From IMG/VR virus record IMGVR_UViG_2687453178_000004: 64,000 nucleotides of DNA. One strand, written 5' to 3'. Position 1 is the stretch's first letter. Every line of letters begins with the position of its first letter. Below are positions 1 to 31,646 of the stretch, one piece after another. Position numbers and translations under genes: made by a program. The notes under the pieces were generated by a model, which was not told the DNA's origin, did not search any database, and saw only the letters and a program-made list of their open reading frames with translations. This DNA comes from an uncultured virus (IMG/VR IMGVR_UViG_2687453178_000004). Taxonomy: Duplodnaviria > Heunggongvirae > Uroviricota > Caudoviricetes.

Positions 1-372
1 TTATTCACCCTTGTAGATACAACCTGCTGTACAAGTTTCTTTGATCTCTAATTTGCTTAGTAGCGGTAGGTTTGGTTTTAGCTGTTGCCAAATCCATTTT
101 GCTAACACTTCGCTGGTCGGGTTTTCTAGACCTTCGATGTCGTTTAGGTAGTAGTGGTCTAAGCGATTGTAAATTGGTTTAAATGCAGCTTTTATCTCTG
201 CAAAATCCACAACCCAACCTGTATGTGGATCAACTTCACCTTCTACATAAAGACGAACAAGGAAAGAGTGTCCGTGCAAACGACCACACTTGTGACCTTC
301 TGGTACGTGTGGCAAATGGTGTGCCGCTTCGAACATAAACTCTTTGTATATTTCTGACAAATGGGATGGCAA
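1..372 (-). CDS. queD: 6-carboxy-5,6,7,8-tetrahydropterin synthase
   Basis: [35 protein letters not shown] and ETCT motifs. Likely start is TTG at 372 after an AGAGG RBS; the 603 start in the ORF track is probably too long. Confidence 0.93.
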
Positions 373-416
373 CTTGTTAAACCTCTGTTTTATATAGACT
401 TTTACAGCGCTCAAAT

Positions 417-590
417 AGTGTGTATATGAACTCATATACACGCCTATATACACACTGTATTTTTTCGTGCTCCCCGATATACACACAAATCGGCGTGATT
501 TAAGAAAAGGATCGGGCAAACACGAAACGATAATGTGGTCATTATCGTTGGCTGAGAGGCAATGCGCAAGTGAGTAAAACTTATATACAC
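417..590. repeat. Cluster of ATATACAC direct and inverted repeats (candidate integrase arm sites or operator)
   Basis: ATATACAC at 434, 446, 477 and 583; inverted copy GTGTATAT at 420; AGTGTGTATAT (417-427) pairs with ATATACACACT (446-456). Confidence 0.5.
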
Positions 591-616
591 AATATCCAGC
601 CACCAGCTACACACTC

Positions 617-1062: not shown

Positions 1063-1174
1063 ACTTGGGCAACGGCAAAATCCGTTGTCGGGATTGAGAC
1101 CCCGCAATTGCAAAGGCGTGATAACGCCAGCTTTACGCTGGTTTTTTATTGCGTGATTCAGTGCGCCCAAATTA

Positions 1175-1248
1175 TGGTGGACTGGATGAGGGCGCTTCGG
1201 CGCGCCGTTTCCTTTGTAGCGGTAGTCTCAACCTTGTTCAGTTCACCA
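1175..1248 (+). ncRNA. c4/CI-type antisense RNA, copy 1 (specificity loop GTCTCAA)
   Basis: 17-bp closing stem TGGTGGACTGGATGAGG/CCTTGTTCAGTTCACCA; GCGC-TTCG-GCGC hairpin; loops complementary to TTGAGAC (1094, 1257) and CAAAGG (1111, 1291). Confidence 0.8.
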
Positions 1249-1304
1249 CCAGCAGATTGAGACCTCTTGGTGGTGATTTAAATGTCATTACAAAGGAGGC
1301 GACT

Positions 1305-1913
1305 ATGCCAGCACAAACTACACTCCCAATCGAACAACATCGTCCTGAAGATCTCGTCTTTATCTCTCAAACAAATAAACTTGTCACCGATTCTTTTTTG
1401 ATCGCTAAGTACTTTAACAAACAACATAAAGACGTGATTCGTAAAATCAGAAACTTGGAGTGCTCGCATGGTTTTACAGGGCGCAATTTTACGCTTTGCC
1501 ACAAAAACAATGAGTTACAGAACAACAAGCTCCAACCGTTTTATCAAATGACAAAAGATGGGTTCATATTCTTGGTGATGGGCTTTACCGGAAAGAAAGC
1601 TGCCATAATCAAAGAAGCTTACATCAATGCTTTTAACTTAATGGCTGAGAAGCTAACCAAGCAGAGTGAAAACTCCATCGACTTCAATCCAAACCTCTAC
1701 AAAGACTTCGTTGACTTGAAAGAACATGTAAACTTTAGAGTGTTGATTGACGTGGTTGCTGGACGAGCAAGTGGGCTCCAGTTTGTGCCCGATGACGCTT
1801 TTGTGTGTAATAAAGAGAAGTTTATGCACTACATGAACAACAACCGAATCTTCACCAATCAAGACATTATTAAGATCAACGCTATTGCAGCTAAACGTCT
1901 TAGCTTGATGTAA
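1305..1913 (+). CDS. rha: Rha family phage regulatory protein/antirepressor, copy 1
   Basis: VTDS..IAKYF.K.H.DV.RKI, YQMTKDGFIFLVMGFTGKKA and YINAFN motifs; AAGGAGG RBS before ATG 1305. Confidence 0.88.
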   Translation: MPAQTTLPIEQHRPEDLVFISQTNKLVTDSFLIAKYFNKQHKDVIRKIRNLECSHGFTGRNFTLCHKNNELQNNKLQPFYQMTKDGFIFLVMGFTGKKAAIIKEAYINAFNLMAEKLTKQSENSIDFNPNLYKDFVDLKEHVNFRVLIDVVAGRASGLQFVPDDAFVCNKEKFMHYMNNNRIFTNQDIIKINAIAAKRLSLM

Positions 1914-1919
1914 AACAAA

Positions 1920-1948
1920 ATAAAGCCAGCTATTAGCTGGCTTTATTT
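1920..1948. terminator. Bidirectional terminator
   Basis: ATAAAGCCAGC-TATTA-GCTGGCTTTATTT. Confidence 0.75.
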
Positions 1949-2499
1949 TATCTCGAGGCTATTAATTACATTTAATTCCTTCAGGCAATTTCACTCTATA
2001 TTCATAATCAACAGGTTTATTGAAATCTATACGAGCAATTGTTTCGTATATTAAAAAATTATACAAAAACTCTCGACTACAAGATTGATCAAATGTTGAA
2101 CCTAGAGAAAACAACACCTTCTTGTTGGTATCCAGATCGTAATAATGCAAAGAAAACGAATGATAAACCAGTGTTTCACTTATAGTCGAATAACCTGTCA
2201 CACCAAGAACCTTCTGATTTGTCGTACTACAAGAGGTAGATAATCCCCATCCCGAACAATTTGTAGTGGAATAACCACTATCTACCAGCCCTAAAGTTGG
2301 GGATTCATACGTAAAAGAGTCAAACTCCTCTTCCAATCTAATATATACAGCAGCGCGAGGTGTAATATTATTAGCAGCCGCCTCTCGACTTGAGTAGACG
2401 CTAGAAAAACCTCGCTTTTTGAGAGCGTCAACAACTGTACGTACATAAAATTTAGATGCCAGGTCATCTTCGTCTACGGTAGATACGACAACAGGAGTG

Positions 2500-3759
2500 A
2501 GAAGTGGCCCCCAATTTTCGGACATGACTTTAAGTGGTCGATCTGTTTTGATAGTACCCAACAATACAGGGACAGATTATGACTAGAAAACGTAGAAACC
2601 ACTCTCCTGAGTTTAAAGCTAAGGTGGCTCTCGATGCCGCTAAAGGCGATAAAACCGTCGCTGAGCTAGCTCAGAAATATAACCTGCACGCTAACCAGAT
2701 CTCAACATGGAAAAAGGAGCTGCTTGAAAACGCAGCCATGATTTTTGCCACCGAAAATCACTCAGGAAAAGAGAGTTCCGAAGAAGTGGACAAACTTCAC
2801 GCCAAGATCGGTCAATTGACCATGGAAAATGATTTTTTGGCCAAAGTGCTCGGTCGTTAGACCGAGCCCAGCGAAAGAGTTCGCTGGTTAAATCCACCCC
2901 ATTGCCGATAAAGCGCCAATGTGAGCTGCTCAATATTGCTCGCTCTACCGCTTACTATCAACCCATCGGACTCTCTGCTGAGGAGATCACGTTACGACGA
3001 ATGATTGACGAAATTCATCTGCAGTATCCGTTTATGGGCAGTCGGCGCATTCGAACTGAGCTGGCTAAAAATGGCCATAGCGTTAATCGTAAGCGTGTTG
3101 TTCGACTCATGCGCGATATGGGGATTGGGGCGATTTACCCCAAGCCCAAAACGACGCTGGCGAACAAAGCACACAAGGTGTATCCCTACCTGTTGCGTGA
3201 TATCGAAGTCACTTACCCAAACCAAGCTTGGGCGATTGATATCACATATATCCCAATGGCGAAGGGGTTCCTGTACCTCGTTGCGATTATCGACTGGTAT
3301 AGCCGCAAAGTGCTGGCTTGGCGACTATCCAACACCATGGACACGAGTTTTTGTATCGAAGCGCTTGAGGAAGCGCTGAAGCATTATGGGCCACCTGATA
3401 TCTTTAACTCAGATCAAGGCAGCCAGTTTACCAGCACAGAGTTCACACAGAAGTTAATTGAGCATAACGTACGTATAAGCATGGATGGGAAAGGCCGCTG
3501 GGTTGACAATGTTTTCATTGAGCGATTATGGCGAAGCCTGAAATATGAGGAGGTTTACTTAAAGGCTTATACCACGCCCCGTGAAGCCGAGCTTGAAATC
3601 GGCAACTACATGGTGTTTTATAATGAAGAGCGTAACCATCAAGGACTCAATAACCTCACTCCTGATGAGGCCTACTTCGGTAGGCAAAGATACGCAGCAT
3701 GAGCTGGGTCAACCACTTAAGAAATGAGCTTATGTGTCCAACCGTTGGGGTCCACTTCT
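2500..3759 (+). mobile_element. IS3-family element, copy 1 (1260 bp)
   Basis: Terminal IRs AGAAGTGGCCCCCAA/TTGGGGTCCACTTCT; 3-bp target duplication GTG; orfA and orfB. Confidence 0.95.
2579..3702 (+). CDS. IS3 transposase OrfA (2579-2860) and OrfB (DDE), joined by a probable -1 frameshift
   Basis: HTH Orf[17 protein letters not shown] and DNVFIERLW motifs; OrfB frame open from the T6 run at 2833. Confidence 0.92.
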
Positions 3760-4096
3760 GTGTTTAGGAAAATATAAGCTTCTGGATCAAACACAGCATA
3801 CTGGTTTGCTTTAATTATCGTTTGGCATCCAGACAATACCCATATGGATATTAATACAAACAAATACTTCTTCATCATTAATACGCTTCATGTGTAAATA
3901 ATTAGCATGGCATTTCACGTGCAGCTCTCTGCCGTGTTCAGCAAGATTGGTGCAAGTTCATGCATAGAAATTATGCCGTAAAAGCCTAGAAAATCAAAAA
4001 GCAAACTGCTAATCAACCCCCTCTCTTGCTGGACAGAATTACCCTTAACTGTTATATAGTTATCATCGTTTAAGCGTTACTTTATGGAGGTGCTAC

Positions 4097-4576
4097 ATGG
4101 CTAAAGCATTAAGTGTAGCCAATGAGTTTTTAAAGTTAGCTAAAGAATGCCAAAGAGATATTACAAACATGCAGATACAAAAACTTGTATACACTGCTCA
4201 TGGCTTGTCTTTGGGGTATACCGGAAAGCCGCTACTCGATGAAGAAGTAAACGCATGGAAACACGGCCCAGTAATACCAGTGTTGTATCATAGGTACAAA
4301 AAATACATTAACGGCAATATTGATGTTGACCAAGAGATTTCACCTTGCGACGAACTCACTCTAGAAGAAAAAGAGATCATAGCAGGCGCTTATAAAAACT
4401 TTGGCAAGTTTGATGGTTGGCAATTGCGTGAACTTACACATAAAGAAGGCAGCCCTTGGCATAAGGTTTGGTATGACCATTGTGGAAATGCAACTTATAA
4501 TGCGGTAATGCCAAATGACATAATCCGCACACATTATGAGAAAATCAAGGCTACTGGACAAGCTTCATCATTATGA
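4097..4576 (+). CDS. Panacea (DUF4065/SocA-like) antitoxin domain protein
   Basis: VANEFL, ITNMQIQKLVYTAHG, AWKHGPV..LY and LRELTH.EGSPW motifs. Confidence 0.85.
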   Translation: MAKALSVANEFLKLAKECQRDITNMQIQKLVYTAHGLSLGYTGKPLLDEEVNAWKHGPVIPVLYHRYKKYINGNIDVDQEISPCDELTLEEKEIIAGAYKNFGKFDGWQLRELTHKEGSPWHKVWYDHCGNATYNAVMPNDIIRTHYEKIKATGQASSL

Positions 4577-4953
4577 TTTCAGATATCAGTGTAATTGCGG
4601 ATTTTCAGGAAACATCACTACAAGATGAAAATGAGCTGTCTGATGAGGTTGCTGAGTTAAAGCTTCAACTAGAAATTCAAAAAATGCAGGCAGAAATCGA
4701 CAAACTTCGTGCCAGTATAGATGATACAAAAAACAACACTGTGCTAAGAAGGGAGTTGGCTGGCAAAACCTTCTCATTTATGGAGAAGTTTACTATTTTT
4801 TCTGCCTTGGTATTTTGGTTATACATTGCGTCTTTCTTATACAATGGGAAAGAAATTCCTGCATCCGTGATGATAACGTTCATCACAACAACTCTTGCAA
4901 CTGTGATCGGCTTGATGGTCATAATCTTAAAGGGCATGTTCGGCTCAAAATAG
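4573..4953 (+). CDS. Coiled-coil plus two-TM protein, putative toxin partner
   Basis: ATGA overlap with the Panacea gene; acidic coiled coil followed by two hydrophobic helices. Confidence 0.7.
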   Translation: MISDISVIADFQETSLQDENELSDEVAELKLQLEIQKMQAEIDKLRASIDDTKNNTVLRRELAGKTFSFMEKFTIFSALVFWLYIASFLYNGKEIPASVMITFITTTLATVIGLMVIILKGMFGSK

Positions 4954-5008
4954 TTACCGCACCTAGCAGTCTGTCATTTTGTAAGTGGCGCATAGCGCGC
5001 CACTCAAA

Positions 5009-8000
5009 CTACCAACTCTGTTGCTCTTGCAGCAACTTAATATATTTTTGATTATAGTGCGCACCATTCTGTGATTTACTCGCCATTTTGAAATGTTGCT
5101 TCACCGAACGGCTTAAAACTTCGTTGGTGATCGGGTTTTGTCGGCCCCATTCCGAGCGGTTGAACTCACGGATATTGTTAAGCACGCTTTTACGTCCATC
5201 ATTGTCCTTAGTGCGTACCGCCAGCCAGTAAGCATTCATTAAGCTTTGACGACGGCGAGTAACTTGACGTTCGTAGCCTTTCAATGCGCTGTTTGAGTCG
5301 TACTGCTGAACAAGTCGAGCCGGAGTAAAACCAAGCGCTTGTTGAGCATGTTCAAACAATGTCACATCATCAATGATAATTTCACCATTTCGGTTTGTGA
5401 CAGTGCCACCTTCTGAAGCGTATCGCGCAGTTCTAAACACGTCCTTAATCCATTTTGGAGTCATGTATTCTACGCCGCGCAAATACTGGCCTTCTGTCAT
5501 GTAGTCCAAACCACGCGCCCAAGATACAGCAATACCAAATGATGCACCTGCCGCCTGTTGAAGAATGTTTTCAGCAACACCAACGCTATCTTGTGCGTCT
5601 GATTCTTGTACCCAAAGGCGAAGCAAATCAATGTTGATTCGGCTTGAAACGCTAGGCATTGAACCGTAGTACAAGCCTTTCGCAATATCTTCACCGAACG
5701 TCTTAGCAAGTAGCGATTTTAGCTCTGTCTCTGCATCCCAAGGCTCATTGTCATCACCTGCCACTGCATAGGCCATATTAGCAATTGCCGCGATTGTAGC
5801 GACTGGTAGAGCGTTTAGACCGCCAATGGCAAACGTAACGGCAAATGTGCCAAGCAACTGCTTACGCGCTTCCTTTCTCACCTCTGGCGTTTCGCCCTTA
5901 ATTGAATCAAAGAAACGGCTAAACAAGTAGTAAGTCATGTTTTGGCTGTACTGCTTGAACTGCAATGCTACCGCCGCAACGTCACCTTGCATGAATCGAG
6001 CGCGGTTACGGCTCGAATAGTCAAAGTGACTATCCCAAGTCGCTTTAGTTGCGTAATCAAGTGACTCTTGTTTGCTTAGTCCGTTCTTCTTCGCCATACG
6101 GTAAGCAGTGATAAAACAAACCTCACGGTTCATCACTTCGGCCCAATGGAAAGGCGCACCGATTAGTTGCTGTGCTTTCGCCCATTTACCCGTATAGTTT
6201 GACGACTCTTGCTCTGCCATACCTGTTAAGTCGGCCATTTGAGTTACGTCGATAGCACCAATTTTGATCGCGTGGCGTAACGCCTCTCTCTCTTCTTGGT
6301 TAAGTACGTCTCCCAAAATGCCGTTGGTCATGTCCATATCACCACGCAAGCCAGCTTTTGATTTTTTAGCAACGAACGTCTTAGCAAATAGGCCCGATAG
6401 ACTTGCCATTTCCGCCGCTGTTTCCTTAAAACCAAAACGTGAGCCAATGTAAGGCAAAGCAATCTGCCAGTTTTGGGATAAGTTGATCATCGCTGACGCT
6501 GGTGAAATACCGATTTGCCAGAAGAACCCAAAACCAGTTAGCGCTTGCGCCCATTGTGCGCGTTGTGGGTTCATCATCCATTCGTGACGCTTAACCATTT
6601 CGTTATACAAGCGTGACGCCGAAACGTTATTGCTCTTATCCGTGGCAATCTTCAACTCTTCCATTAGATCGGTGAAGCGCTTCTCTGTTTCTAGTCGCGC
6701 TTGTTGGTTCGCTTGGCGAACACCCTGATCTGCTAGAACACGAGCCGCATCTTCTGAATAACCAGCCACACCTTTACGGTGAATGAATGATTTACGAATT
6801 GAACGATCAGGCATGGTTTGCAAATACATTTGGTAGATTTCATCAGTTAACTGATCTTTCACCTTGTCGTTAGTTTGCGCACCTGAGATCGCCTTAATAA
6901 TATCGCTCACGAATGACGCGCTAGCACCATTTAGGCCGCGACTCTCTTGGATTTTTAGACCAAAGCGCACTTGTCCAACTTCTAAGTTCGCATTCTTATC
7001 ATCCTGAACCTTGTAGCCAGCCGCCTGAAGCTTTTTAACGTCTTTCATCATGGCGTTTTCAGTCTCATACATTTGGAATACACGCTCACCGCTTGGGTCA
7101 ACGGCATCGATCCAGTAGTTACCAAAACGCGCCAACGGAACATAGAAACCAAGGCGTGATTTTTCCATCATGTAACGATGGTAAGTGTTCTCACCTGCTC
7201 GTTTGTTACCAGCCATGGCAAGATCAGTAATGCGCTCTTCTAGCGCCTTATCCATTTCCTCGCGTTGGCTAATGTAGTGATCGCGCACATCGGTAAAGAC
7301 TTTTTGAGCATCTGGCGAAAGCTGTAGGAACTTCTCGCGTAATGCCTTGTGTTTAAGTCTTAGTTTCGGCTCGTTCTTAATCTCACGCTCTAGCGCTTGG
7401 CGTTCTTGCCAAATTTCAGAACCGCGCTTAGTTTGCGAACCGCCGTACTCTTGGTAAAGCTTCGCTAGTGTTTTGAGTAGCACTTTCTTCTCATCAGTTT
7501 GGTCAACATACTCTTTTGACGGGTCAACATCGGCCAACGTCGCATCGTGCAACAAACTAAAGGTAGCTTCGGCGTCTTGTGGCTTATCCTTACGGAACTT
7601 ATTCAAGGCATCAGCTTGTTTGTGAACTTTCTCAATCAAGTCTGTTTTGCGTGTAGTAAACAAATCTTTGTTGTTTACATACGACTCAAGAATGTTGCCA
7701 ACCTCACGGCTTACTCGTTTTCTACCTACTTCAGCCATTTGGCGTAGGTTTAACAACGCCCAACCACCATTTTTAAGCGCATCAAACTGCTTGCTAATAA
7801 ATGGAACGTTGATATTGCCAAGCATTTGCTTGTAGAAACTCTCATTCTTCGCTGCCAACGCATCAGCAATGCTCACAATTGGATCGCCTTGCTGCGCCAA
7901 ATCCTCATCCATGCTTGAGATTGTTTGGCTAAAGCGCACAACGTTAGAAAGCGTGGTCATTCCGTTAGGTTTTCGAAGGTCGCTATCCACGTTGTTGATC

Positions 8001-11000
8001 ATGTTGCGCACTTCTGAAAGCGTGATTTTCTCTGCACTCAAAATGCCAGAACGACGCAATGCACCAAGCACCCAAGACAACACTTTGTCTAAGATTCGTT
8101 GAGAAACGCTAGACTCTGTTTCTGCAATCTTAGCGATCACCTCTTCCGCTTTTACGTCTTCCGGTGCGGTTCGATATGATTTATCAACCTCGGCAAAGAT
8201 GCCTTTCAAAGAGTTAACGTTTCGTAGGCTGTTGACCTTCTTGGTTAACTGCGCTTGTTGAGCAACGTCTAGGTTTGCGTATAGGCCATTGTGAGCAATA
8301 AACTCATGGCGCAAAGTGCGGCGAACGTCAGCAACGTTTTCCAAGTTTTCTGCCACCAGCACAACACGGTTATCACCGGACAACCATGCGCCTTTAACAA
8401 TCGCATTGGATTCAGTTTCAACCAGTTCATGCAGATCGGCCATAGTTGGCACAACCATTACATTCGCACCTTTCAAACCGTCGTATTGGTTAATCCAATC
8501 TTGAGCGGCTTGAGTAACCTTTTCAGGCGATAGGCTGGTGGAAGGCTTTTTGTTGACTTCGCTGGCCTTGCTGAAACGAATATCGTCGTACTGATCGTTC
8601 GCTGGTTTTTCAATGACAATAATCTTTGTTGCTACGTTCGTAGGGTTCAAGCTGTTCTTGAATGCGCCAGCGTCTAGGTTGATCTCTTCTGCACCAACTT
8701 CATCTAGGTAACGACGGAAGTTTTTATTTGTTGTGTTACCACGATTACCAGCCATTGAGCTAGTGATAGCAACCAACTTACCGCCATCTTTTAGCATCGT
8801 TAGCGCATGGTTGATGTGGTGAATATCTGCATCGTTACTAAATGGAGGATTCATAACAATGCGGTCATAGATTTCACCAGCGTTATATTCCAAGAAATCA
8901 CCAGCAACAACGTTGTGCCCCTTCTCTTCAAGTAATTCGCTTAGAGTGAAAGCAAGTTCACCAACATCAAGATCTACGCCATTTAGAGCTGCAATTTGAT
9001 CGGCAATGTGACCCATACCAGCACTTGGCTCTAGCACTTTCATACCTGGTTTAATATCGGCTAAATCAATGAGCTTTTTCACTTCTGCTTCAGGAGTTGG
9101 GAAGAAGTCATTAAACGCATTACGGTTACCGCGTACAGTTTCCTCAATCTTCTCTGTGAGTTTTTGTAAGCGTGTTTTTTCTTTCTGCGTTGACATTTTT
9201 CCGTTGTTCGCTTGCTCATATTCACGCAAGGCTTGGCGCAACGTGATATCGCCTTTAATACCCATGCGAATTAAGCGATCTTGCGACTTGAATAACTCGT
9301 TGATGTGCTCGACACGGTAAACAGTGTTTGATTTGCTACGCGCTAGCTGGCGCAATTTAGGAATAACTTTATCCCAACGCACACCATTCAAGTTAACGCT
9401 CTCGTGCTCCTTCAAGCCTTTAATGTTTGCTCGAATAGATTTAGCCGTCATCTTGTAACCGTCTAGGTTTTCGATTTCTCGCGCAATGTATTCAAGTGAC
9501 GCTGGCGTACTCTTCGGCGCTGGAAAACGAACGTAACGAGCAACCTGATTAAACTTAGTTTCTGGTTTTAAATGCCAGTTGCCTTGCTGATCTCGATACG
9601 CTAGTTTTTCTCGAACATCTTCAGGCATATCCCATTTAACACGGTTCATAACGCTTGTTAGTTCTTCAAGCTGGCTGATATCAGTCAAGTTGCCTAGCAG
9701 TAGGAACTCGCCAGATTCAACGCCATCGGCAATCTTACGCAAGATATTCGCTTGCGCCTCTTGCTTATCTGCTCGTGCCGCTGCGCTTGCTGCCATGGCT
9801 GCGCGACGAGAAGTATTAGTCAAACGCTGTGTGTTGTTTGACTCATCAGCTTTCGCCTGTAGTGATGCCGCTTTTTCGCGTAGAGCTTCAACTTGCTTCT
9901 CTTTTTTCGACTTCGTTTTCTCTTGATCGCGTTGTTTAACTCGTTCGCTTTGATCAACGTTCAAGCCGCCCATTACAGATAGGAAATCATCACGCGCTTG
10001 TTCAGATTTAAAGTCAAAACGAGCTGGCAAGTTTTTAGGTTTGTAAGCTCGTGCGTACCAACCGCCTAGCTGTTTCGCCTTGGCTCTCATATCGTTGAAA
10101 GTATCGCTATCAACTTCGCTAAACGCAGCGCCATAGCGTTGTTCACCTTTAGCTTCGTTGAGAACATCGACCTTGCTCAACTCGATAGTCCCGTCAGTTT
10201 CAACGGCCTTAACTTCAGCTTTTCGCTCTAGTTCGCGCTTTTCTTGCTCTGCTAGTTTGCTTAACTGATTTTCAGTGTATAGACGGTCAAACTCGGCTAG
10301 CTGCTGGTCATTGAAGGCATCAATAGTGCCGCCGTTAGCTCGTGCGTAGGCTTGGAAATCATCAAGTGTTTGAGGATTATCAAGAGCCTTTTTCTTGCGC
10401 TCGGCTTCCTGCTCACGCTCGATTGCTTGTTGTTTTCGTTTCTCAGCAAGCTTGTTGTAGTCAGCATCACTCATTTCAGAAAGAATGTTGCGCATAGCTG
10501 AAGGTGATTTAACTACAAACATTCCACCATCAGACTGAATAGCAGCAAACTGGTTGCCGATATCTTTAACCGCTCGCTTAACTAGATCGTCTTTACGCAA
10601 GCTTGTATCAATCCATTGGCCCATTTGAGCAAAGAAATTGCCGATAGCTGGCTTCGTGAATTGGCTAAATTCTTCCTCTAAAGCCGGAACATCATCAATG
10701 TAGTTATCAATCAGCTCAATTGCCTCTTCCTTGGTGTACTCGCCACTTTGAAGCGCGTTGATAGCTTTTAGATATTCACGCGCTCCACTTGGGCGAGAAC
10801 GGCCTTTTTTAGCTTTAGACGCATCAGTTTCGTTGCTGGTGGCCTTGCTAGCTTTTGGTTGCGTAGGCTCTGGCTTGTCGTCACTCAGATCGCTCTTTGT
10901 CAAGTCGATTGCTTTTTGGCGTTCTGATTTCACTCGTTCAGATAAGTGGCGATCAGCATACTCACGTAGATACTTATCAAACTCTTTATGCTGTGAAGAA

Positions 11001-13363
11001 GTTAGATCAGCGCTCATTTTCATTCCGTTCTCATCTCGGAAATCCGCAATACGATGAGTGATCCAAGACATATAGCCAGCATTGCTATTGATAGCTTCAA
11101 GCTCTTCCGATTCCAAAGTATCTAGGTACGCTTGATAACGTGGGTTATCTGCCTTACCTGTTTTTGCTTTAGCAAAGCGTTCTTTTGCAACTGACTGATT
11201 TAACTCTTTAGTTTTCAACGTGTGTTCAACTTGTGGCGCATCATAAACTCGTTGATTCTCGATACCCGTTGCTAACGGAGTAACGTCACGCTCACCGTTT
11301 GGTTGATGTCCACCAGCAAACGAGTTGGTTTGAGCTTGTTGTCTCATACCTTGAAGAACACGCGCCTGATTACGTTGAAACTCTGGCGTTTCCTCAACGT
11401 TTGGTTGATAGCCATTGGTTCGAATGCCGCGATTCTCTAGTTGCTGTTGAGCATTGCGCTCTTGAGCTTGCTGATCACGCAGAAAACTCTCTTCATCAGT
11501 TGGGCGTAACTGATCGACTTGTTTTAGCTCTTCGGAGTTAATGACACGCTGCAAAGCGCTGATCGCTTGCTCTTGGCTCATGCTTCCGTCACGACGCGCT
11601 TTTGCAGTCTGAAGCACTGCTGCTGGTGAGATTTCCATGGCGCGTTGCAAGCCTTGTTTAAAGTTTTCGTCTTGCGCTGCAATTTCATCGACAAAACCAA
11701 GCTCACCACGTTGAATTGATTGGCTCAATTCAAACTTATCTCGTTGAGCATCTTGAGAATGGTATAGCTCTGAATCTGCCATTACTTCGCCAGTTTCAGG
11801 ATCAAACATTTCTGCTTGAGCAACTTCATTATCAACTGGTGATTTTTGTTTCTGTCCAATAGCACTCAAGAACTCATTGTAAATTGAATTCATTGAACGC
11901 TGCGCCGCTTGACGTTCTTCAATGGATAGATCTGTATTAAGAGTTGCCAAGTAACGGCTCATGTCTTGACGCAATTGCTTCGCGTAATCATTGCCTCGGT
12001 CTTGTTTTTCCCAAGTTTTGATTGCGCTGACAGCTTGCTGGCCGTCACGGATTAGATCGGCATGATTGTCTGAAGAGAACAGATTAACAGGCGCTTGCTC
12101 TTGCTGTTTTGCAGCTTCAGAAATTGGTTGTTGTGGTTGCGCTTGCTGTGGCTGTACTGGTTCCGGCTGTTGTGGCTCAACACTTTGTTGTGCTTCCGCT
12201 TGATCTTCCGTTGCGTGACGCTCTGCTGCTGGCGGCACTTTACCCATTGCAGCACCTAACGCTTGATGTGCTAAAGCCGTAGATTCGTTAGCATCAAAGC
12301 CCATAGAAAGAGCGCGGTTCTCAATCTTCGGTCTTAGAAGAGCCTCAATCTCTTGATCTGTTTTACCAACCGAGCGCAATTGCGAAATCACTTCTGGATT
12401 GATCGCTTGTTCAATCTTGCTTTCAAAGTTACGACGACGGTAACGACCAGCCACACCACTAGGCGCACCAAAACCACCACCGATCAAACCACCGACTAAA
12501 CCAGACTCAAGCGCAGCCGCGCCAACGCCTTCGGAGTTGTCGCCTTCAACGTCCATCTTTTCGTTGGTATGAACGTTAGAGCGGTATTGTTCAACGCCAC
12601 CTTGTACGGCCTCGGTGCCACCTTCAGCAAGTACACCTTTACCAATAGCACCTTTGATTGTTTTGCCTAAACTACCTTTTAGCAGTTTAACCATTGCCTG
12701 ATCACCTACCGTTTCACCGATCAGGTTGACCATGCCTAGAGTAAGGTCGGTTTTAATTGAATCTCCAACCTCTTGGGCCAATCGAGTACGAGCGTTGTTT
12801 AGCGCCTCTTCATCAGAGATATTCTTATCCGCTTCTTCGGCCACATAACGCTTGAACTGTGGAGAATCCATTAATTCGTGATAAGGAATGTTCTCGATTT
12901 CTCGTTGAACACTTAAGGCTTGACCACCGTTACCAGCCGCCAAGTTTAGAAGTGCGTTAGTACCGACATTGGCACCTTGGGACACCGCAGCGCTTCGACC
13001 TGCCATTGACGCTGCTTTACCTGCTGCGCCGGCTGGCAACATGGTTACGGCCATACCACCAAGCACATTAGACGCAGTACCTAACCATGTACGCCAATCT
13101 TTAGCACCTTCGCCAAAGCTCATATCATCATTGATGATATCTTTCGCCATGGCTTCACGCATTTCAGGCGATAAGGTTTCGTATTGCTCATTAGCCCAAT
13201 TCTCTAATGAACTTGCTGCCTTTTCTGCACCAACGAAATTCGCAGCACCAGCCAAAGTTTGCAAAGCGCCTTGTTGAGCCATATCAACAACGTCACCAAA
13301 CGTTGATGTGTTTCGATTACGCTCTCTTTCTGCTACTCGACGTCTCGCCTCTATGAAATCCAT
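5009..13363 (-). CDS. Giant (2784 aa) virion ejection/polyvalent protein with adenine methyltransferase, HExxxH and PLxRFG regions
   Basis: VLEPSAGMG and IVMNPPF MTase motifs; RTLRHEFIAH; FYVPLARFG; Gly/Ala-rich N-terminus; last gene of the morphogenesis cluster. Confidence 0.85.
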   Translation of the reverse strand: MDFIEARRRVAERERNRNTSTFGDVVDMAQQGALQTLAGAANFVGAEKAASSLENWANEQYETLSPEMREAMAKDIINDDMSFGEGAKDWRTWLGTASNVLGGMAVTMLPAGAAGKAASMAGRSAAVSQGANVGTNALLNLAAGNGGQALSVQREIENIPYHELMDSPQFKRYVAEEADKNISDEEALNNARTRLAQEVGDSIKTDLTLGMVNLIGETVGDQAMVKLLKGSLGKTIKGAIGKGVLAEGGTEAVQGGVEQYRSNVHTNEKMDVEGDNSEGVGAAALESGLVGGLIGGGFGAPSGVAGRYRRRNFESKIEQAINPEVISQLRSVGKTDQEIEALLRPKIENRALSMGFDANESTALAHQALGAAMGKVPPAAERHATEDQAEAQQSVEPQQPEPVQPQQAQPQQPISEAAKQQEQAPVNLFSSDNHADLIRDGQQAVSAIKTWEKQDRGNDYAKQLRQDMSRYLATLNTDLSIEERQAAQRSMNSIYNEFLSAIGQKQKSPVDNEVAQAEMFDPETGEVMADSELYHSQDAQRDKFELSQSIQRGELGFVDEIAAQDENFKQGLQRAMEISPAAVLQTAKARRDGSMSQEQAISALQRVINSEELKQVDQLRPTDEESFLRDQQAQERNAQQQLENRGIRTNGYQPNVEETPEFQRNQARVLQGMRQQAQTNSFAGGHQPNGERDVTPLATGIENQRVYDAPQVEHTLKTKELNQSVAKERFAKAKTGKADNPRYQAYLDTLESEELEAINSNAGYMSWITHRIADFRDENGMKMSADLTSSQHKEFDKYLREYADRHLSERVKSERQKAIDLTKSDLSDDKPEPTQPKASKATSNETDASKAKKGRSRPSGAREYLKAINALQSGEYTKEEAIELIDNYIDDVPALEEEFSQFTKPAIGNFFAQMGQWIDTSLRKDDLVKRAVKDIGNQFAAIQSDGGMFVVKSPSAMRNILSEMSDADYNKLAEKRKQQAIEREQEAERKKKALDNPQTLDDFQAYARANGGTIDAFNDQQLAEFDRLYTENQLSKLAEQEKRELERKAEVKAVETDGTIELSKVDVLNEAKGEQRYGAAFSEVDSDTFNDMRAKAKQLGGWYARAYKPKNLPARFDFKSEQARDDFLSVMGGLNVDQSERVKQRDQEKTKSKKEKQVEALREKAASLQAKADESNNTQRLTNTSRRAAMAASAAARADKQEAQANILRKIADGVESGEFLLLGNLTDISQLEELTSVMNRVKWDMPEDVREKLAYRDQQGNWHLKPETKFNQVARYVRFPAPKSTPASLEYIAREIENLDGYKMTAKSIRANIKGLKEHESVNLNGVRWDKVIPKLRQLARSKSNTVYRVEHINELFKSQDRLIRMGIKGDITLRQALREYEQANNGKMSTQKEKTRLQKLTEKIEETVRGNRNAFNDFFPTPEAEVKKLIDLADIKPGMKVLEPSAGMGHIADQIAALNGVDLDVGELAFTLSELLEEKGHNVVAGDFLEYNAGEIYDRIVMNPPFSNDADIHHINHALTMLKDGGKLVAITSSMAGNRGNTTNKNFRRYLDEVGAEEINLDAGAFKNSLNPTNVATKIIVIEKPANDQYDDIRFSKASEVNKKPSTSLSPEKVTQAAQDWINQYDGLKGANVMVVPTMADLHELVETESNAIVKGAWLSGDNRVVLVAENLENVADVRRTLRHEFIAHNGLYANLDVAQQAQLTKKVNSLRNVNSLKGIFAEVDKSYRTAPEDVKAEEVIAKIAETESSVSQRILDKVLSWVLGALRRSGILSAEKITLSEVRNMINNVDSDLRKPNGMTTLSNVVRFSQTISSMDEDLAQQGDPIVSIADALAAKNESFYKQMLGNINVPFISKQFDALKNGGWALLNLRQMAEVGRKRVSREVGNILESYVNNKDLFTTRKTDLIEKVHKQADALNKFRKDKPQDAEATFSLLHDATLADVDPSKEYVDQTDEKKVLLKTLAKLYQEYGGSQTKRGSEIWQERQALEREIKNEPKLRLKHKALREKFLQLSPDAQKVFTDVRDHYISQREEMDKALEERITDLAMAGNKRAGENTYHRYMMEKSRLGFYVPLARFGNYWIDAVDPSGERVFQMYETENAMMKDVKKLQAAGYKVQDDKNANLEVGQVRFGLKIQESRGLNGASASFVSDIIKAISGAQTNDKVKDQLTDEIYQMYLQTMPDRSIRKSFIHRKGVAGYSEDAARVLADQGVRQANQQARLETEKRFTDLMEELKIATDKSNNVSASRLYNEMVKRHEWMMNPQRAQWAQALTGFGFFWQIGISPASAMINLSQNWQIALPYIGSRFGFKETAAEMASLSGLFAKTFVAKKSKAGLRGDMDMTNGILGDVLNQEEREALRHAIKIGAIDVTQMADLTGMAEQESSNYTGKWAKAQQLIGAPFHWAEVMNREVCFITAYRMAKKNGLSKQESLDYATKATWDSHFDYSSRNRARFMQGDVAAVALQFKQYSQNMTYYLFSRFFDSIKGETPEVRKEARKQLLGTFAVTFAIGGLNALPVATIAAIANMAYAVAGDDNEPWDAETELKSLLAKTFGEDIAKGLYYGSMPSVSSRINIDLLRLWVQESDAQDSVGVAENILQQAAGASFGIAVSWARGLDYMTEGQYLRGVEYMTPKWIKDVFRTARYASEGGTVTNRNGEIIIDDVTLFEHAQQALGFTPARLVQQYDSNSALKGYERQVTRRRQSLMNAYWLAVRTKDNDGRKSVLNNIREFNRSEWGRQNPITNEVLSRSVKQHFKMASKSQNGAHYNQKYIKLLQEQQSW

Positions 13364-13644
13364 CGGTATCCCCTCTAAATACTAAATAGGAAATAGACGA
13401 TGAAATTATATCTTTAAAAAGTATCGATTGATTACATTTATCACCGAAAGAAAACAAAATAGTTTTTCATTTGAAATTCAAAATGATATGCTACAAAAAA
13501 GCTTGACTATCACGCCTAACGGTAATTATTCTACTCGGGCAACGGCAAAATCCGTTGTCGGGATTAGTACCCCGCAATTGCAAAGGCGTGATAACGCCAG
13601 CTTTACGCTGGTTTTTTATTGCGTGATTCAGTGCGCCCAAATTA

Positions 13645-13718
13645 TGGTGGACTGGATAAGGGCGCTTCGGCGCGCCGTTTCCTTTGTAGCGGTAGTACTA
13701 ACCTTGTTCAGTTCACCA
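13645..13718 (+). ncRNA. c4/CI-type antisense RNA, copy 2 (specificity loop GTACTAA)
   Basis: Same fold as copy 1; loop complementary to TTAGTAC at 13564 and 13727. Confidence 0.8.
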
Positions 13719-13774
13719 CCAGCAGATTAGTACCTCTTGGTGGTGATTTAAATGTCATTACAAAGGAGGCGACT

Positions 13775-14383
13775 ATGCCAGCACAAACTACACTCCCAAT
13801 CGAACAACATCGTCCAGAAGATCTCGTCTTTATCTCTCAAACAAATAAACTTGTCACCGATTCTTTTTTGGTCGCTAAGTACTTTGGAAAGCGTCACGAC
13901 GACGTGCTTAGAAAGATAAGAAACCTAAATTGCTCGTATACCTTTACAAACCGCAATTTTACGGTTTGCCATAAAAACAATGAGTTACAGAACAACAAGC
14001 TCCAACCGTTTTATCAAATGACAAAAGATGGGTTCATATTCTTGGTGATGGGCTTTACCGGAAAGAAAGCTGCCATAATCAAAGAAGCTTACATCAATGC
14101 TTTTAACTTAATGGCTGAGAAGCTAACCAAGCAGAGTGAAAACTCCATCGACTTCAATCCAAATCTCTACAAAGACTTCGTTGACTTGAAAGAGCATGTA
14201 AACTTTAGAGTGTTGATTGACGTGGTTGCTGGACGAGCAAGTGGGCTCCAGTTTGTGCCCGATGACGCTTTTGTGTGTAATAAAGAGAAGTTTATGCACT
14301 ACATGAACAACAACCGAATCTTCACCAATCAAGACATTATTAAGATCAACACTATTGCAGCTAAACGTCTTAGCTTGATGTAA
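13775..14383 (+). CDS. rha: Rha family phage regulatory protein/antirepressor, copy 2
   Basis: Same motifs as copy 1; differs mainly in one N-terminal patch. Confidence 0.88.
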   Translation: MPAQTTLPIEQHRPEDLVFISQTNKLVTDSFLVAKYFGKRHDDVLRKIRNLNCSYTFTNRNFTVCHKNNELQNNKLQPFYQMTKDGFIFLVMGFTGKKAAIIKEAYINAFNLMAEKLTKQSENSIDFNPNLYKDFVDLKEHVNFRVLIDVVAGRASGLQFVPDDAFVCNKEKFMHYMNNNRIFTNQDIIKINTIAAKRLSLM

Positions 14384-14419
14384 AACAAAATAAAGCCAGC
14401 TATTAGCTGGCTTTATTTT

Positions 14420-14697
14420 GCCTCGACTGCAAAGTCTCCGGTATTGGCCCTAAAGAAAAACACTATTTCCTTTTGACCTCCTCTTTAAATACTGAAACTG
14501 ACAATTCCTTACTCACACATACACACCTCGGATTGAATGATAAAAATGTTGTCGCTACGTTAATGCCTGTTCAGGACATGGAGGCCAGCATTAACAAGAC
14601 ACTGCTCCTTAAATATAAAAGTTCAGATAAGCACGACCTAATCTGCCATCAACAGGCGGATGTATTCATAGAAAAATTGTCATTACATTTAGCATAA
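14420..14697 (+). pseudogene. Possible 3' remnant of a gene truncated at the repeat boundary
   Basis: Frame is open from the repeat edge to a TAA overlapping the EamA ATG; no good start or RBS. Confidence 0.35.
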
Positions 14698-15674: not shown

Positions 15675-16250
15675 TTAAATATTAAATGGCCTACACAATG
15701 CGTTAATTAATCGGGTCGGCACTCTTGGAAATAGTTCTTTCATTTCTTCTGCCGAAATACCAGACAAACGCCCAAAGCGAGACATAATCTTTTTTACAGC
15801 ATCAGGATCATATCTTAATAACCTTCTGACTCTATTGCCTGCTACGTCGTATTTTTTTTCACCACTATTAGGCCAATCTATACTGCATTTACGCAACAAA
15901 AAATCATGAGAAAACTTGACGGCAACGCCTTCCTCCAACCAACTTACTTCTTCATATTTTACTGGGCTTAGAGTATGAATAGCTTCATGAGCAAGTTGAT
16001 AGTGAGCTCGGTCGCGATCATGTTTACATTCTTTGTTAATGAACACTCCTATTGACTCTGTACGTGATGTATCTGTAAAAGGCTGTAGATGCGTAAATTC
16101 TACAGGCCGTAATATTCTGCCGTGTCGAGAACTACCAATCTCAACTTCCGCATCCTCTATTGCAAGTTTAAGAATTTTATCCATCCTCAACGGCTAGGGT
16201 ACTCCCTGCGAAAGAGCAGGGAGGGGAATAGCCAAAGGTGCGATAGCGCC

Positions 16251-16661
16251 TTAATGCGGTCTATCCTGTTGCTCGATGTACTGACGAATAACAGTTAGTG
16301 GCGCACCTCCACATGTTCCAGCAAAGTAAGACCGACTCCAAAGCACATTCTTACCAAACGCTCCTGCTACATCATTAAATTCCCTGCGAATCCTGCGTGA
16401 ACTGGTTGCTTTTAACGAGTTCACCAATTTTGCAACGCTAGGTGTATTCGGAGATGTTGATATTAGCAAATGAACATGGTCAGGCTCTCCGTTAAATTCC
16501 TTTAGCTCTGCATCAAAGCCCAAACAAAGCTCCCTGAAAGTCGCCTCAAGACTTTGTAGATGCAAATCTCCAAACACTTTCTTTCTGTATTTTGTCACGA
16601 AAACGATATGTAAATGCAGTGAATAACAACTATGCCTACCCTTATTAAAACTACCGCACAC
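16251..16661 (-). CDS. tnpA: IS200/IS605 HUH (Y1) transposase
   Basis: HIVFVTKYR, EPDHVHLL, LWSRSYF and RQYIEQQ motifs. Confidence 0.93.
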   Translation of the reverse strand: MCGSFNKGRHSCYSLHLHIVFVTKYRKKVFGDLHLQSLEATFRELCLGFDAELKEFNGEPDHVHLLISTSPNTPSVAKLVNSLKATSSRRIRREFNDVAGAFGKNVLWSRSYFAGTCGGAPLTVIRQYIEQQDRPH

Positions 16662-16724
16662 TGATATTGCCTTTAGATATAAGTTGATAATATAAATACA
16701 TTATCAAGATTCACACTGACTGTC

Positions 16725-17903
16725 ATGTTAATACGCAAAGCATACAAATTTCGGTTAGAGCCTACCGCTACCCAAGCGGCTAGACTTGCTGTGCTTTGCG
16801 GTCATGCTCGATTTGTGTGGAATCAAGGCTTGCGCCACTGCTTAAACAAGTTGGACTCTGGCGAGAAAATACCAAGCGCATTCGAGCTTAATAAGCTGAT
16901 AACTCAGTGGAAGAAGCAAGACGATTTATCGTGGCTCAAAGAGGCATACACTGACAATCTACAACAAAAGCTCAAAGACCTTCATACGGCTTGGATGCGA
17001 TGCTTCGACAAGTCATTAGCTGCTGATAAGCCTAGATTTAAAAAGAAAGGTAAAAACCAAGATTCAGTGCGCTTTGTTAACTTTAACAAATACTGCGAAC
17101 TAGATGGTAAGCGTGTAAAGCTACCGAGCAAGCTTGGCTGGCTGAAGTTTCGCAAATCACAAGAAGTGCAAGGCAACATTAAGAACTGTACTGTTAGTTT
17201 TAAGTCTGGTCACTGGTATATATCGTTCCAAGTTGAGCAAGAAATTGATGAACCTAAGCATACCTCTAGCTCTGCCGTTGGTATTGATATGGGTGTTGCC
17301 AAGTTCGTCACATTGTCTGACGGCTCATATCTAAAGCCGCTTAACGCATTCCGTAAGCATGAAAAGCGCTTAGCTGTTGAACAGCGCAAGCTATCAAGAA
17401 AAGTTAAGTTTTCTGCTAACTGGCAGAAACAGAAAGCCAAAATTCAAAAGCTACACACTCTCATTGCGAATTGTCGCAAGGACTACTTACATAAAGCCTC
17501 ACATCAAATCAGCAAGAACCACGCGATGATAGTGATTGAGGACTTACGTGTATCAAACATGTCTAAGTCAGCAAAAGGCAATGCAGAAAAGCACGGTAAA
17601 AATGTGAAAGCTAAGTCAGGGTTGAACAAATCAATACTTGATCAGGGTTGGTATGAGTTCAGAAGACAACTAGAGTACAAGCAATTATGGAATGGTGGTT
17701 TAGTTGTCGCTGTGCCAGCGCAATACACAAGCCAAACCTGCCCTTGTTGCAGTCATGTATCGAAAGATAACCGTAAAACTCAATCTCATTTTGAGTGTAT
17801 TAAGTGTGGTTACACCAACAATGCAGATATTGTTGGCGCATTAAATATTTTAGAGCGGGGACACCGCTTGTTAGCCTGTGGAGAGTCGGCGTTAGCCGCT
17901 TGA
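16725..17903 (+). CDS. tnpB: RNA-guided endonuclease TnpB
   Basis: AYKFRL, RuvC GIDMG/VIEDL/NADIVGALNI, zinc finger CPCC..CIKC. Confidence 0.93.
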   Translation: MLIRKAYKFRLEPTATQAARLAVLCGHARFVWNQGLRHCLNKLDSGEKIPSAFELNKLITQWKKQDDLSWLKEAYTDNLQQKLKDLHTAWMRCFDKSLAADKPRFKKKGKNQDSVRFVNFNKYCELDGKRVKLPSKLGWLKFRKSQEVQGNIKNCTVSFKSGHWYISFQVEQEIDEPKHTSSSAVGIDMGVAKFVTLSDGSYLKPLNAFRKHEKRLAVEQRKLSRKVKFSANWQKQKAKIQKLHTLIANCRKDYLHKASHQISKNHAMIVIEDLRVSNMSKSAKGNAEKHGKNVKAKSGLNKSILDQGWYEFRRQLEYKQLWNGGLVVAVPAQYTSQTCPCCSHVSKDNRKTQSHFECIKCGYTNNADIVGALNILERGHRLLACGESALAA

Positions 17904-18049
17904 TGAATCAGGAACTTGCACCTAAAGCAATTTAGCGTGCGCCCATGTAATGGGAATCCCCTAGCGAATTAGCTAGGGGAGGATGTCAAGGTAAAAAGCT
18001 AATAATGCCGTAACTAATAATTCTAGCTTGAGCTCTTCTGTATAGTACA

Positions 18050-26097: not shown

Positions 26098-26958
26098 TTA
26101 GGCTTCTAAAAATTCGAATGGAGTTTGCATATCCCCCTCTGTCCAAGTGGCGTATTGATTAAATAGCTTTTCCAATCGAATAGCATAAGCATCTTTAATT
26201 TGCTGGATCTGATTGTACGTCAGTCTTACAGGTTCATTATTTGCTGCAATCCAGACCGTCTCTTTATCCAGCATATTATTGCGCTCTGCATACCATAGCG
26301 TTTCATCCATGTTGTTCCGGTCAACTTGGCGAACTTGGAACTCATATCCATGAATAAAGATGTTTGATAGTTTTATTTCATCTCGCAAAGCTTGCGCCTT
26401 GTTCCGATGAAACTCCGCGATCACATTGTCAGGTTTTCTCTCGACAACTGGCGTCTTGGTAACGGTAAATTCTTCGTCATTGACCAAATAATCGTATTCA
26501 CCATTATGAGTGTAATAATTAGCGTCGTATGGCACTTCAATCACTTCATAAACGGCGCGGCGATTTTGCATATCGATCACTGGCCGCGCTGGTGGCAACG
26601 TGGCAACTTCTTCACCATCTTCGCCAATAGTGATTTCAGGAACAAAGTTCTCTACATCCACCAGCCATTGAAGATATTGATCGTGGTTTACTTGAAAATC
26701 TTCCCAAGCAATTGCTCGTTCAAGCTCTGGCTTAACAACTTGCTCCCAAGACTTACGCTCACCGCGTCTTTGGTTTACATCATGAAAAGTAATCTCTTCA
26801 GGCTTATTAAGAACAATGACCGTGTATTGCTCGGTTATAGGGGAAGGTTCCTCCCCCTCTGTGTAGCCAATCACTCGTTCTCGAATATGTTCAGCATAGT
26901 AATGCCGGATATTCTCATCAATATCGGTTAAGGCCGTGTAGTCGGTATCAATGATCAT
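26098..26958 (-). CDS. Tail fibre assembly/chaperone-like protein (DUF4376-like C-terminus)
   Basis: Overlaps the tail fibre stop; FQVRQVDRNN..WIAANNEPVRLT motif. Confidence 0.6.
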   Translation of the reverse strand: MIIDTDYTALTDIDENIRHYYAEHIRERVIGYTEGEEPSPITEQYTVIVLNKPEEITFHDVNQRRGERKSWEQVVKPELERAIAWEDFQVNHDQYLQWLVDVENFVPEITIGEDGEEVATLPPARPVIDMQNRRAVYEVIEVPYDANYYTHNGEYDYLVNDEEFTVTKTPVVERKPDNVIAEFHRNKAQALRDEIKLSNIFIHGYEFQVRQVDRNNMDETLWYAERNNMLDKETVWIAANNEPVRLTYNQIQQIKDAYAIRLEKLFNQYATWTEGDMQTPFEFLEA

Positions 26959-29348: not shown

Positions 29349-30608
29349 AGAAGTGGACCCCAACGGTTGGACACATAAGCTCATTTCTTAAGTGGTTGAC
29401 CCAGCTCATGCTGCGTATCTTTGCCTACCGAAGTAGGCCTCATCAGGAGTGAGGTTATTGAGTCCTTGATGGTTACGCTCTTCATTATAAAACACCATGT
29501 AGTTGCCGATTTCAAGCTCGGCTTCACGGGGCGTGGTATAAGCCTTTAAGTAAACCTCCTCATATTTCAGGCTTCGCCATAATCGCTCAATGAAAACATT
29601 GTCAACCCAGCGGCCTTTCCCATCCATGCTTATACGTACGTTATGCTCAATTAACTTCTGTGTGAACTCTGTGCTGGTAAACTGGCTGCCTTGATCTGAG
29701 TTAAAGATATCAGGTGGCCCATAATGCTTCAGCGCTTCCTCAAGCGCTTCGATACAAAAACTCGTGTCCATGGTGTTGGATAGTCGCCAAGCCAGCACTT
29801 TGCGGCTATACCAGTCGATAATCGCAACGAGGTACAGGAACCCCTTCGCCATTGGGATATATGTGATATCAATCGCCCAAGCTTGGTTTGGGTAAGTGAC
29901 TTCGATATCACGCAACAGGTAGGGATACACCTTGTGTGCTTTGTTCGCCAGCGTCGTTTTGGGCTTGGGGTAAATCGCCCCAATCCCCATATCGCGCATG
30001 AGTCGAACAACACGCTTACGATTAACGCTATGGCCATTTTTAGCCAGCTCAGTTCGAATGCGCCGACTGCCCATAAACGGATACTGCAGATGAATTTCGT
30101 CAATCATTCGTCGTAACGTGATCTCCTCAGCAGAGAGTCCGATGGGTTGATAGTAAGCGGTAGAGCGAGCAATATTGAGCAGCTCACATTGGCGCTTTAT
30201 CGGCAATGGGGTGGATTTAACCAGCGAACTCTTTCGCTGGGCTCGGTCTAACGACCGAGCACTTTGGCCAAAAAATCATTTTCCATGGTCAATTGACCGA
30301 TCTTGGCGTGAAGTTTGTCCACTTCTTCGGAACTCTCTTTTCCTGAGTGATTTTCGGTGGCAAAAATCATGGCTGCGTTTTCAAGCAGCTCCTTTTTCCA
30401 TGTTGAGATCTGGTTAGCGTGCAGGTTATATTTCTGAGCTAGCTCAGCGACGGTTTTATCGCCTTTAGCGGCATCGAGAGCCACCTTAGCTTTAAACTCA
30501 GGAGAGTGGTTTCTACGTTTTCTAGTCATAATCTGTCCCTGTATTGTTGGGTACTATCAAAACAGATCGACCACTTAAAGTCATGTCCGAAAATTGGGGG
30601 CCACTTCT
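29349..30608 (-). mobile_element. IS3-family element, copy 2 (orfA 30248-30529, orfB ending at 29406)
   Basis: Same ORF translations and ends as copy 1. Confidence 0.95.
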
Positions 30609-31281: not shown

Positions 31282-31646
31282 GGACAAAAGTGTGTCATCG
31301 CTTTTGCTAAATTAGCAAATTACGGATTAGGTAAAATTGGGGGGCGTTGCCCCCGCCTCCGTTCTGTTATCAAACTCCTTTACAGCCCTTTTCTAGAAGG
31401 ACTTTAACTAATGACACCAAGGAGTACAGCAATGGCTATTGACGCACTGAGGGGCAAAGAAGCCCATAATAAACTTTTCCACATCAATCAAAAAGTCAGA
31501 TGTGGAATAGTTTAAGTTAAGTTGGATCATCTCAGCTATATAATATAATTAATACAAAAACGTCTAAAGCGTTGCTGCCATTAATCCCCAACAACTATAC
31601 CCTTCAGTGTTCGCTTTATTTCCGCACCAACATCTTTTACATAACC

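Follow-up and report, generated by a model that had tools for sequence, protein, structure and literature searches.

Why would a single prophage carry two near-identical copies of an antisense RNA switch, each in front of its own rha gene, that differ chiefly in the short code by which each RNA would recognise its targets? The question is raised by a 64,000-nucleotide (nt) stretch of DNA from an uncultured virus of the Caudoviricetes (IMG/VR record IMGVR_UViG_2687453178_000004), which we refer to at its full length as the window, and whose near-identical modules lie at 1033-1950 and 13503-14420 in one prophage. We consider it rather probable, judging from sequence and from likeness to characterised systems, that each module is an intact switch of the P1 immI and Gifsy-1 IsrK type and that the code at one pairing site, a, gives strong discrimination. 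The switch type is long known from P1 c4 and Salmonella IsrK, and stacked copies recur in other prophages.

Two near-identical C4-type modules

The modules belong to a duplicated tract of ~970 nt (about 984-1955 and 13454-14425) whose copies align with 96% column identity at an offset of 12,470 nt; a repeat search returned a 300-nt direct repeat with its copies 12,470 nt apart. The first-pass annotation had described two near-identical non-coding leaders, and the extent proves larger, with rha and its terminator duplicated too and a b1 site present in addition to the motifs already recognised. Each module runs, on the plus strand, from a promoter through an IsrK-type leader with sites a1 and b1, a C4 antisense RNA with a' and b', and the target sites a2 and b2, to rha and a terminator.

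Module 1 opens with a sigma-70-like promoter site at 1033-1062 (TTGACT, an 18-nt spacer, TATCCT), with 6 nt between it and the Rfam isrK match. The IsrK-type leader RNA occupies 1069-1147, with a1 (TTGAGAC) at 1094-1100, b1 (TGCAAAGG) at 1109-1116, and an intrinsic terminator found by a terminator scan at 1126-1147. C4 RNA 1 follows at 1176-1250, with b' (TCCTTTGTA) in a hairpin loop at 1210-1218 and a' (GTCTCAA) in a single-stranded junction at 1225-1231. The rha1 leader target sites span 1257-1297, comprising a2 (TTGAGAC) at 1257-1263 and b2 (TACAAAGGA) at 1289-1297. The rha1 gene (1305-1913) encodes 202 amino acids (aa) with a Phage_pRha domain (Pfam E 1.1e-26; PHROG 518), and the module closes at 1912-1949 with an 11-bp repeat, AAAACAAAATA (1912-1922), and the rha1 terminator hairpin (1922-1949).

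Module 2 has the same parts. Its promoter-like site lies at 13503-13532 (TTGACT, 18 nt, TATTCT) and its IsrK-type leader at 13539-13617, with a1 (TTAGTAC) at 13564-13570 and a terminator at 13596-13617. C4 RNA 2 (13646-13720) has b' at 13680-13688 and a' (GTACTAA) at 13695-13701, and the rha2 target sites (13727-13767) comprise a2 (TTAGTAC) at 13727-13733 and b2 at 13759-13767. The rha2 gene (13775-14383) encodes a 202-aa Phage_pRha protein 95% identical to Rha1, with 10 of the 11 amino-acid differences within residues 33-64, and is followed by the right-hand 11-bp repeat and the rha2 terminator hairpin (14382-14419). In both copies b2 overlaps an AAGGAGG Shine-Dalgarno sequence 5 nt upstream of the rha ATG (1305 and 13775), and in both the rha open reading frame (ORF), the promoter and the terminators are intact.

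That these are c4-type antisense switches, as had been claimed from the letters alone, is upheld by Rfam matches, the predicted fold and a P1-like layout. The C4 model (RF01695) matches above its gathering score at both sites, with 68.6 bits at 1170-1253 and 69.6 bits at 13640-13723 against a cut-off of 45, as does the isrK model (RF01394; cut-off 50), which scores 64.5 and 66.4 bits; both isrK matches end in intrinsic terminators. The c4-a1b1 model (RF03163) matches the leader starts just below its cut-off of 46.7, at 41.7 bits (E 8e-8) and 43.8 bits (E 2e-8). Weak Thr_leader matches at the rha terminators were dismissed as a chance likeness to the hairpin.

The C4 sequences fold with a predicted minimum free energy (MFE) of -38.7 kcal/mol (z -5.3) in copy 1 and -39.6 kcal/mol (z -5.8) in copy 2; none of 200 shuffled sequences folds as well, and the MFE structure is also the centroid. 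The predicted structure consists of a long closing stem, a GC tetraloop hairpin, a hairpin that presents b' in its loop, and a single-stranded junction containing a'. In the predicted fold of the leader, the second IsrK hairpin presents a1 in its 8-nt loop. In P1, RNase P processes the precursor to give a c4 RNA of about 77 nt. A GGT motif at 1176 occupies the position homologous to the 5' end of P1 c4, and homology with P1 would place the mature C4 RNAs, each 75 nt long, at 1176-1250 and 13646-13720.

Two further features of the leaders bear on how they are read. A 254-aa frame with a TTG start (1149-1913 and 13619-14383) runs through C4 into rha, and gene callers would probably annotate the C4 region as an N-terminal protein extension. 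In the leader folded alone, a CCTCTT beside a2 is paired to the AAGGAGG Shine-Dalgarno sequence (1264-1299 and 13734-13769); CACCACC and GGTGGTG can instead form a hairpin with a2 in its loop, and the competition between the two folds is reminiscent of structures A and B in the Gifsy-1 study.

A code that changes in concert at three sites

The 236-nt transcribed leader (1069-1304) shows 10 differences between the copies, and nine of them make up the three-base cores of a1, a' and a2. The core is GAG in copy 1 and AGT in copy 2 at all three sites, with complementarity kept. The tenth difference, G1188 to A, lies in the C4 closing stem, where a G-U pair becomes A-U. Differences thus fall on 9 of 21 code positions and on 1 of 215 others (Fisher p = 5e-10). 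All the heptamers reported by the first-pass annotation are in place, and the module alignment bears out their covariation at three sites. Its other structural points stand as well: the G-U to A-U change is seen in the predicted C4 fold, and b' is common to both copies and complementary to b2 over the rha Shine-Dalgarno sequence.

The predicted duplex energy of a' with a2 is -7.0 to -10.1 kcal/mol for cognate pairs and -3.2 to -5.7 kcal/mol for non-cognate pairs; for b1 with b' the prediction is -9.9 kcal/mol. RNAcofold returned no intermolecular pairs for mature C4 with either its targets or IsrK; loop-loop contacts are beyond that program's model.

In the mechanism we propose, the constitutive-looking promoter would give rise to a leader that mostly ends at the IsrK terminator. 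Read-through transcripts would carry C4, which by homology would be excised as an RNA of ~75 nt, followed by the rha ribosome-binding region. Pairing of C4 a' with a2, and of b' with b2 over the Shine-Dalgarno sequence, would leave rha untranslated, and the short IsrK RNA, with a1 and b1 as decoys, would titrate C4 and so free rha, as in Gifsy-1. The two modules would then be near-isogenic paralogues with different a-codes, and a lysogen should express two RNA specificities together. Since the a-code core is GAG in one module and AGT in the other, each C4 should prefer its own leader, and from the heptamers we infer that the two switches may be orthogonal. Selection for carrying two codes is also plausible, though less so than discrimination by the a-code.

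Comparison with known antisense RNA switches

Phages P1 and P7 are an experimentally heteroimmune pair. Their immI regions belong to the same RNA family (RF01695) and have the same layout of decoys, antisense RNA and targets at the ribosome-binding site; the annotated P1 record places a1, b1, a 77-nt c4 RNA, a2, b2 and the icd start codon in the same order and at the same spacing as the window. In our alignment a two-base swap in a and a second one in b, each present at all three sites, separate P1 from P7 (PMC5320573 cites "4 nt" for this pair), so the concerted allele swap between heteroimmune relatives is of the kind found between the window's two modules. Phage D6 has P1's a with a third b, and SJ46 has P7's a with that same third b; D6 and SJ46 hence differ at a only, and P1 and D6 at b only, which is to say that a and b alleles assort combinatorially among the four records (L304-L307). 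There are also differences from P1 and P7 immI: the window has an IsrK-type terminator after a1 and b1 and two modules per prophage, and its switch governs a Phage_pRha gene where P1 immI governs icd-ant, whose antirepressor is of the ANT/KilAC domain type, and P1 Ant1 itself has an ANT domain.

The isrK - orf45/STnc1160 - anrP locus of Gifsy-1 (Hershko-Shalev et al. 2016, PMC4825925) is close in a different respect. According to the excerpted text of that study, one promoter gives a short terminated RNA and a read-through mRNA, the short IsrK RNA activates translation on the read-through transcript by base pairing in trans, and a processed RNA of ~80 nt, STnc1160, arises downstream of IsrK (PMC4825925). 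The same excerpts describe the regulated gene as antirepressor-like, and the leader family is Rfam isrK, as in the window. They treat the C4 region as a 45-codon ORF in a single module, with 0 occurrences of P1 in that text, whereas we treat the window's C4 as non-coding (PMC4825925). A third system is set beside the others for its architecture. The CI RNA of satellite phage P4, with its sites seqA and seqC, works by transcription termination. It is likewise a processed antisense RNA, which pairs with complementary sites upstream and downstream of itself, as that study's excerpts relate (PMC4825925).

Related proviruses and independent sequencing runs

The nearest record, G001, is a 57-kb provirus that CheckV places at 100% completeness; it runs collinear with the window starting at base 1 and covers both insertion sites, which agrees with the earlier placement of both copies inside one prophage. 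G001 has one module, at site 1, with a third, 8-nt code, TTAGGAAC / GTTCCTAA (AGGA), altered at all three sites. A second relative, G003, also has one module at site 1, here with the copy-2 code and a leader identical to that of copy 2 except at 2 positions. This lineage holds at least three codes, and therefore distinct specificity groups would exist. The occurrence of AGT or AGGA in one-module relatives thus suggests that the code is a fast-evolving, recombining specificity determinant.

Site 2 is empty in both G001 and G003: one 11-bp repeat is followed directly by the rha terminator, where the window has module 2 bounded on both sides by the repeat (13451-13461 and 14382-14392). Module 2 may have been deleted between the repeats in the relatives or gained by the window's lineage, and retention of the rha terminator at the empty site favours deletion. 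Copy 2 has its own upstream flank and a diverged rha patch, and the modules are therefore mosaics produced by recombination.

The duplication was examined in public sequencing data, where the share of sampled words from 13200-14600 reaches at least 0.67 in 14 DNA runs from 7 studies; contigs were compared for two of them, X1 and X12. A 10.5-kb contig of X1 and a 10.3-kb contig of X12 each lead from the module 1 terminator through the intervening cargo, without its insertion sequence (IS), into module 2, reaching 228 nt (X1) and 51 nt (X12) past the junction. Several bases set each of these strains apart from the window, of which they are therefore independent, and the duplication can be taken as real. 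Read depth over the piece of X1 that contains the code is that of a single copy (103 against 104), as would fit two different codes. The C4 piece of X12 (window 13569-13870) has the AGGA code, and its depth is about double that of its unique flanks (75 against 38). With three different right-hand contexts of the rha terminator also present in X12, its strain may contain two or three modules, of which two would have one code. Two RNA runs were compared as well: X15, with an indexed word share of 0.23, gave 0 matching contigs, and the raw reads of X21, a sample from which the prophage may be absent, gave 0 matches.

Diversity of the a-code and recurrence of stacked switches

If the a-site carries specificity, it should vary, in matched fashion, among loci that share b'. 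We found 119 loci on viral contigs with the window's b' pattern, and 100 of them have a perfect a'/a2 7-mer; in 96 of those 100, a perfect a1 also lies no more than 200 nt upstream, at a site that was unused in the selection. The 100 loci present 26 distinct a-codes, the tabulation of heptamer variants that the first-pass annotation had proposed. Matched variation at a with b' constant argues, at the level of sequence, that a carries the specificity. The other 19 of the 119 loci have no a'/a2 pair, and those listed look by eye mostly like chance pattern matches. By eye no contig appears twice among the viral matches, in a scan that detects second copies only when they have the same b'. On bacterial contigs, an a'/a2 pair occurred in 20 of 120 loci among the matches listed, which are mostly chance.

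Stacked switches emerged when a custom covariance model built from 60 C4 sequences was run on 51 viral (IMG/VR) loci encoding Rha relatives, with 10-kb flanks. Nine of the 51 have two C4 RNAs, spaced by 656 nt in four loci, by ~850-860 nt in another four and by 5 kb in one (L258). The paired C4 RNAs differ in a', b' or both in all nine, L284 in b' only, and both cassettes precede Phage_pRha genes in each of the three loci checked. These nine should not be counted as nine independent events, since many are near-identical prophages. The Rfam model confirms two C4 RNAs in G007, G008 and G009, and in the P1-like phage MH160767.1 (L309 391-476; L311), whose two C4-icd leaders lie 39 kb apart and have the same a-code, that of P7, with different b. 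The MH160767.1 record annotates neither C4 as RNA.

The rarity of two-code loci that had been implied at the outset is thus not borne out. The window does stand apart in the form its pair takes: the other stacked C4-rha loci are adjacent in 8 of 9 cases and diverged, whereas the window's copies are 12.5 kb apart and 96% identical, differing only in the a-code, one stem base and the rha patch. Multiplicity has been noted in other settings, in excerpts that describe many C4-like small RNAs per Acinetobacter baumannii genome, varying mainly in a' (PMC5320573), and one P1-like plasmid element with extra icd and ant homologues (PMC6906374). A limited literature search found no paper on two differently coded C4 modules within one prophage.

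Gene content and state of the prophage

The cargo between the modules (1962-13363) consists of a 200-aa ORF on the minus strand, an IS3-family element, a Panacea-domain gene pair and a DarB-like gene. The IS3-family element (2500-3759; 1260 bp) is the third copy in the window, 100% identical to the other two; neither G003 nor the contigs of X1 and X12 have it. The Panacea-domain (SocA-like) gene at 4097-4576 overlaps a 126-aa ORF at 4573-4953, and the DarB-like polyvalent protein (5009-13363, minus strand; 2784 aa) contains a methyltransferase, a helicase-like region and LPD39.

The other two IS3-family copies, identical and in inverted orientation, bound a 4,685-nt insertion at 29349-34033 that is absent from G001. 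It splits a large virion gene into halves at 26955-29384 and 33947-36067, both assigned to phrog_14489, and contains a fragment of a group II intron (RF02012, 31098-31233) as well as a gene for cation efflux (31647-32555). An IS200/IS605 pair at 16185-17986, comprising a Y1 transposase (16251-16661) and an OrfB/TnpB-like gene (16725-17903), is absent from both G001 and G003. With three identical IS copies, an IS200/IS605 pair and a split virion gene, all absent from relatives, this copy of the prophage is probably defective. At the left edge of the window (1-603, minus strand) is a gene for a QueD-like 6-pyruvoyl-tetrahydropterin synthase, which hints at genes for 7-deazaguanine DNA modification in the prophage.

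Alternative explanations

Several observations pull away from the view that the a-code gives each module its own immunity specificity. The b'/b2 duplex is the same in both modules and, at a predicted -17.1 kcal/mol, exceeds any a'/a2 duplex, so that cross-repression is possible. The window's modules differ at a only, where the heteroimmune pair P1 and P7 has differences at a as well as at b. From the depth of its C4 piece, both modules of the X12 strain may share one code. Rha and P1 Ant1 have no significant similarity by BLASTP (E 0.065), and one is a Phage_pRha and the other an ANT protein; "antirepressor" is for Rha an analogy, since it is not homologous to P1 Ant. An antirepressor would bind or inactivate the prophage repressor; the window has a CI-type repressor gene at 60245-60880. 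Lastly, because this copy is riddled with IS elements and its virion gene is split, infection of another lysogen may be moot for it.

Some of these points favour a reading in which the second module is a functionally redundant duplicate left behind when related heteroimmune prophages recombined; each C4 RNA would repress both leaders through the identical b'/b2 pairing, and the a-code would be a trace of the two parents. The direct repeats around module 2 and the empty site in relatives suit it, as does copy 2 itself, which combines a leader nearly that of G003 with a unique upstream flank and rha patch in a mosaic typical of recombination, and so would a strain such as X12 that held one code twice. 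It is hard to see, however, why 26 a-codes should be matched in cis among 100 same-b' loci, with 96 of the 100 matching at a third site as well, if a were irrelevant, or why all nine two-cassette viral loci should differ in a', b' or both; both modules of the window, moreover, are fully intact. We regard redundancy as a possibility to be kept in mind and, on balance, unlikely.

A second alternative holds that the stretch with the 200-aa ORF, the toxin-antitoxin genes and the DarB-like gene is a separate island or satellite with its own switch. Copies of the direct 11-bp repeat and terminator hairpin do flank this stretch in all three genomes, but neither an integrase nor a replication gene was found in 1962-13363, G001 and G003 have the same stretch with only one module, and G001 is classed as one complete provirus across both sites, so we think two elements very improbable. 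That the second copy is an assembly artefact we give almost no credence: repeats of ~1 kb at 96% identity are of a size at which short-read assemblies can err, but the copies differ in flanks, codes and rha patches, and the X1 and X12 contigs, from strains unlike the window and drawn from the 14 matching runs, enter module 2. Discrimination between two intact, differently coded switches remains the reading we prefer.

Significance of the paired modules

The two modules form a natural minimal pair, with a common promoter, scaffold and b-site and nearly the same protein, in which a 3-nt a-code has been swapped three times; the third, 8-nt allele in a close relative extends this to an allelic series. 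They would offer a test bed for whether the a-site alone sets the specificity of C4-type RNAs, a question that P1 and P7, which differ at both sites, leave open.

A bolder proposal, which we put forward tentatively and think less probable than discrimination between these two modules, is that the a-site alone, beside an invariant b-site directed against the Shine-Dalgarno sequence, is a sufficient and rapidly diversifying RNA address. At least three codes would then move between two insertion sites, and carrying two of them would widen a lysogen's immunity and provide an rha that escapes relatives with a single code. If this is true, an arms race would have left its mark in the excess of changes at code positions, 9 of 21 as against 1 of 215 elsewhere. 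The modules show, further, that ORF callers can read such leaders as protein, and that RNA codes would be worth tabulating when prophage immunity groups are compared.

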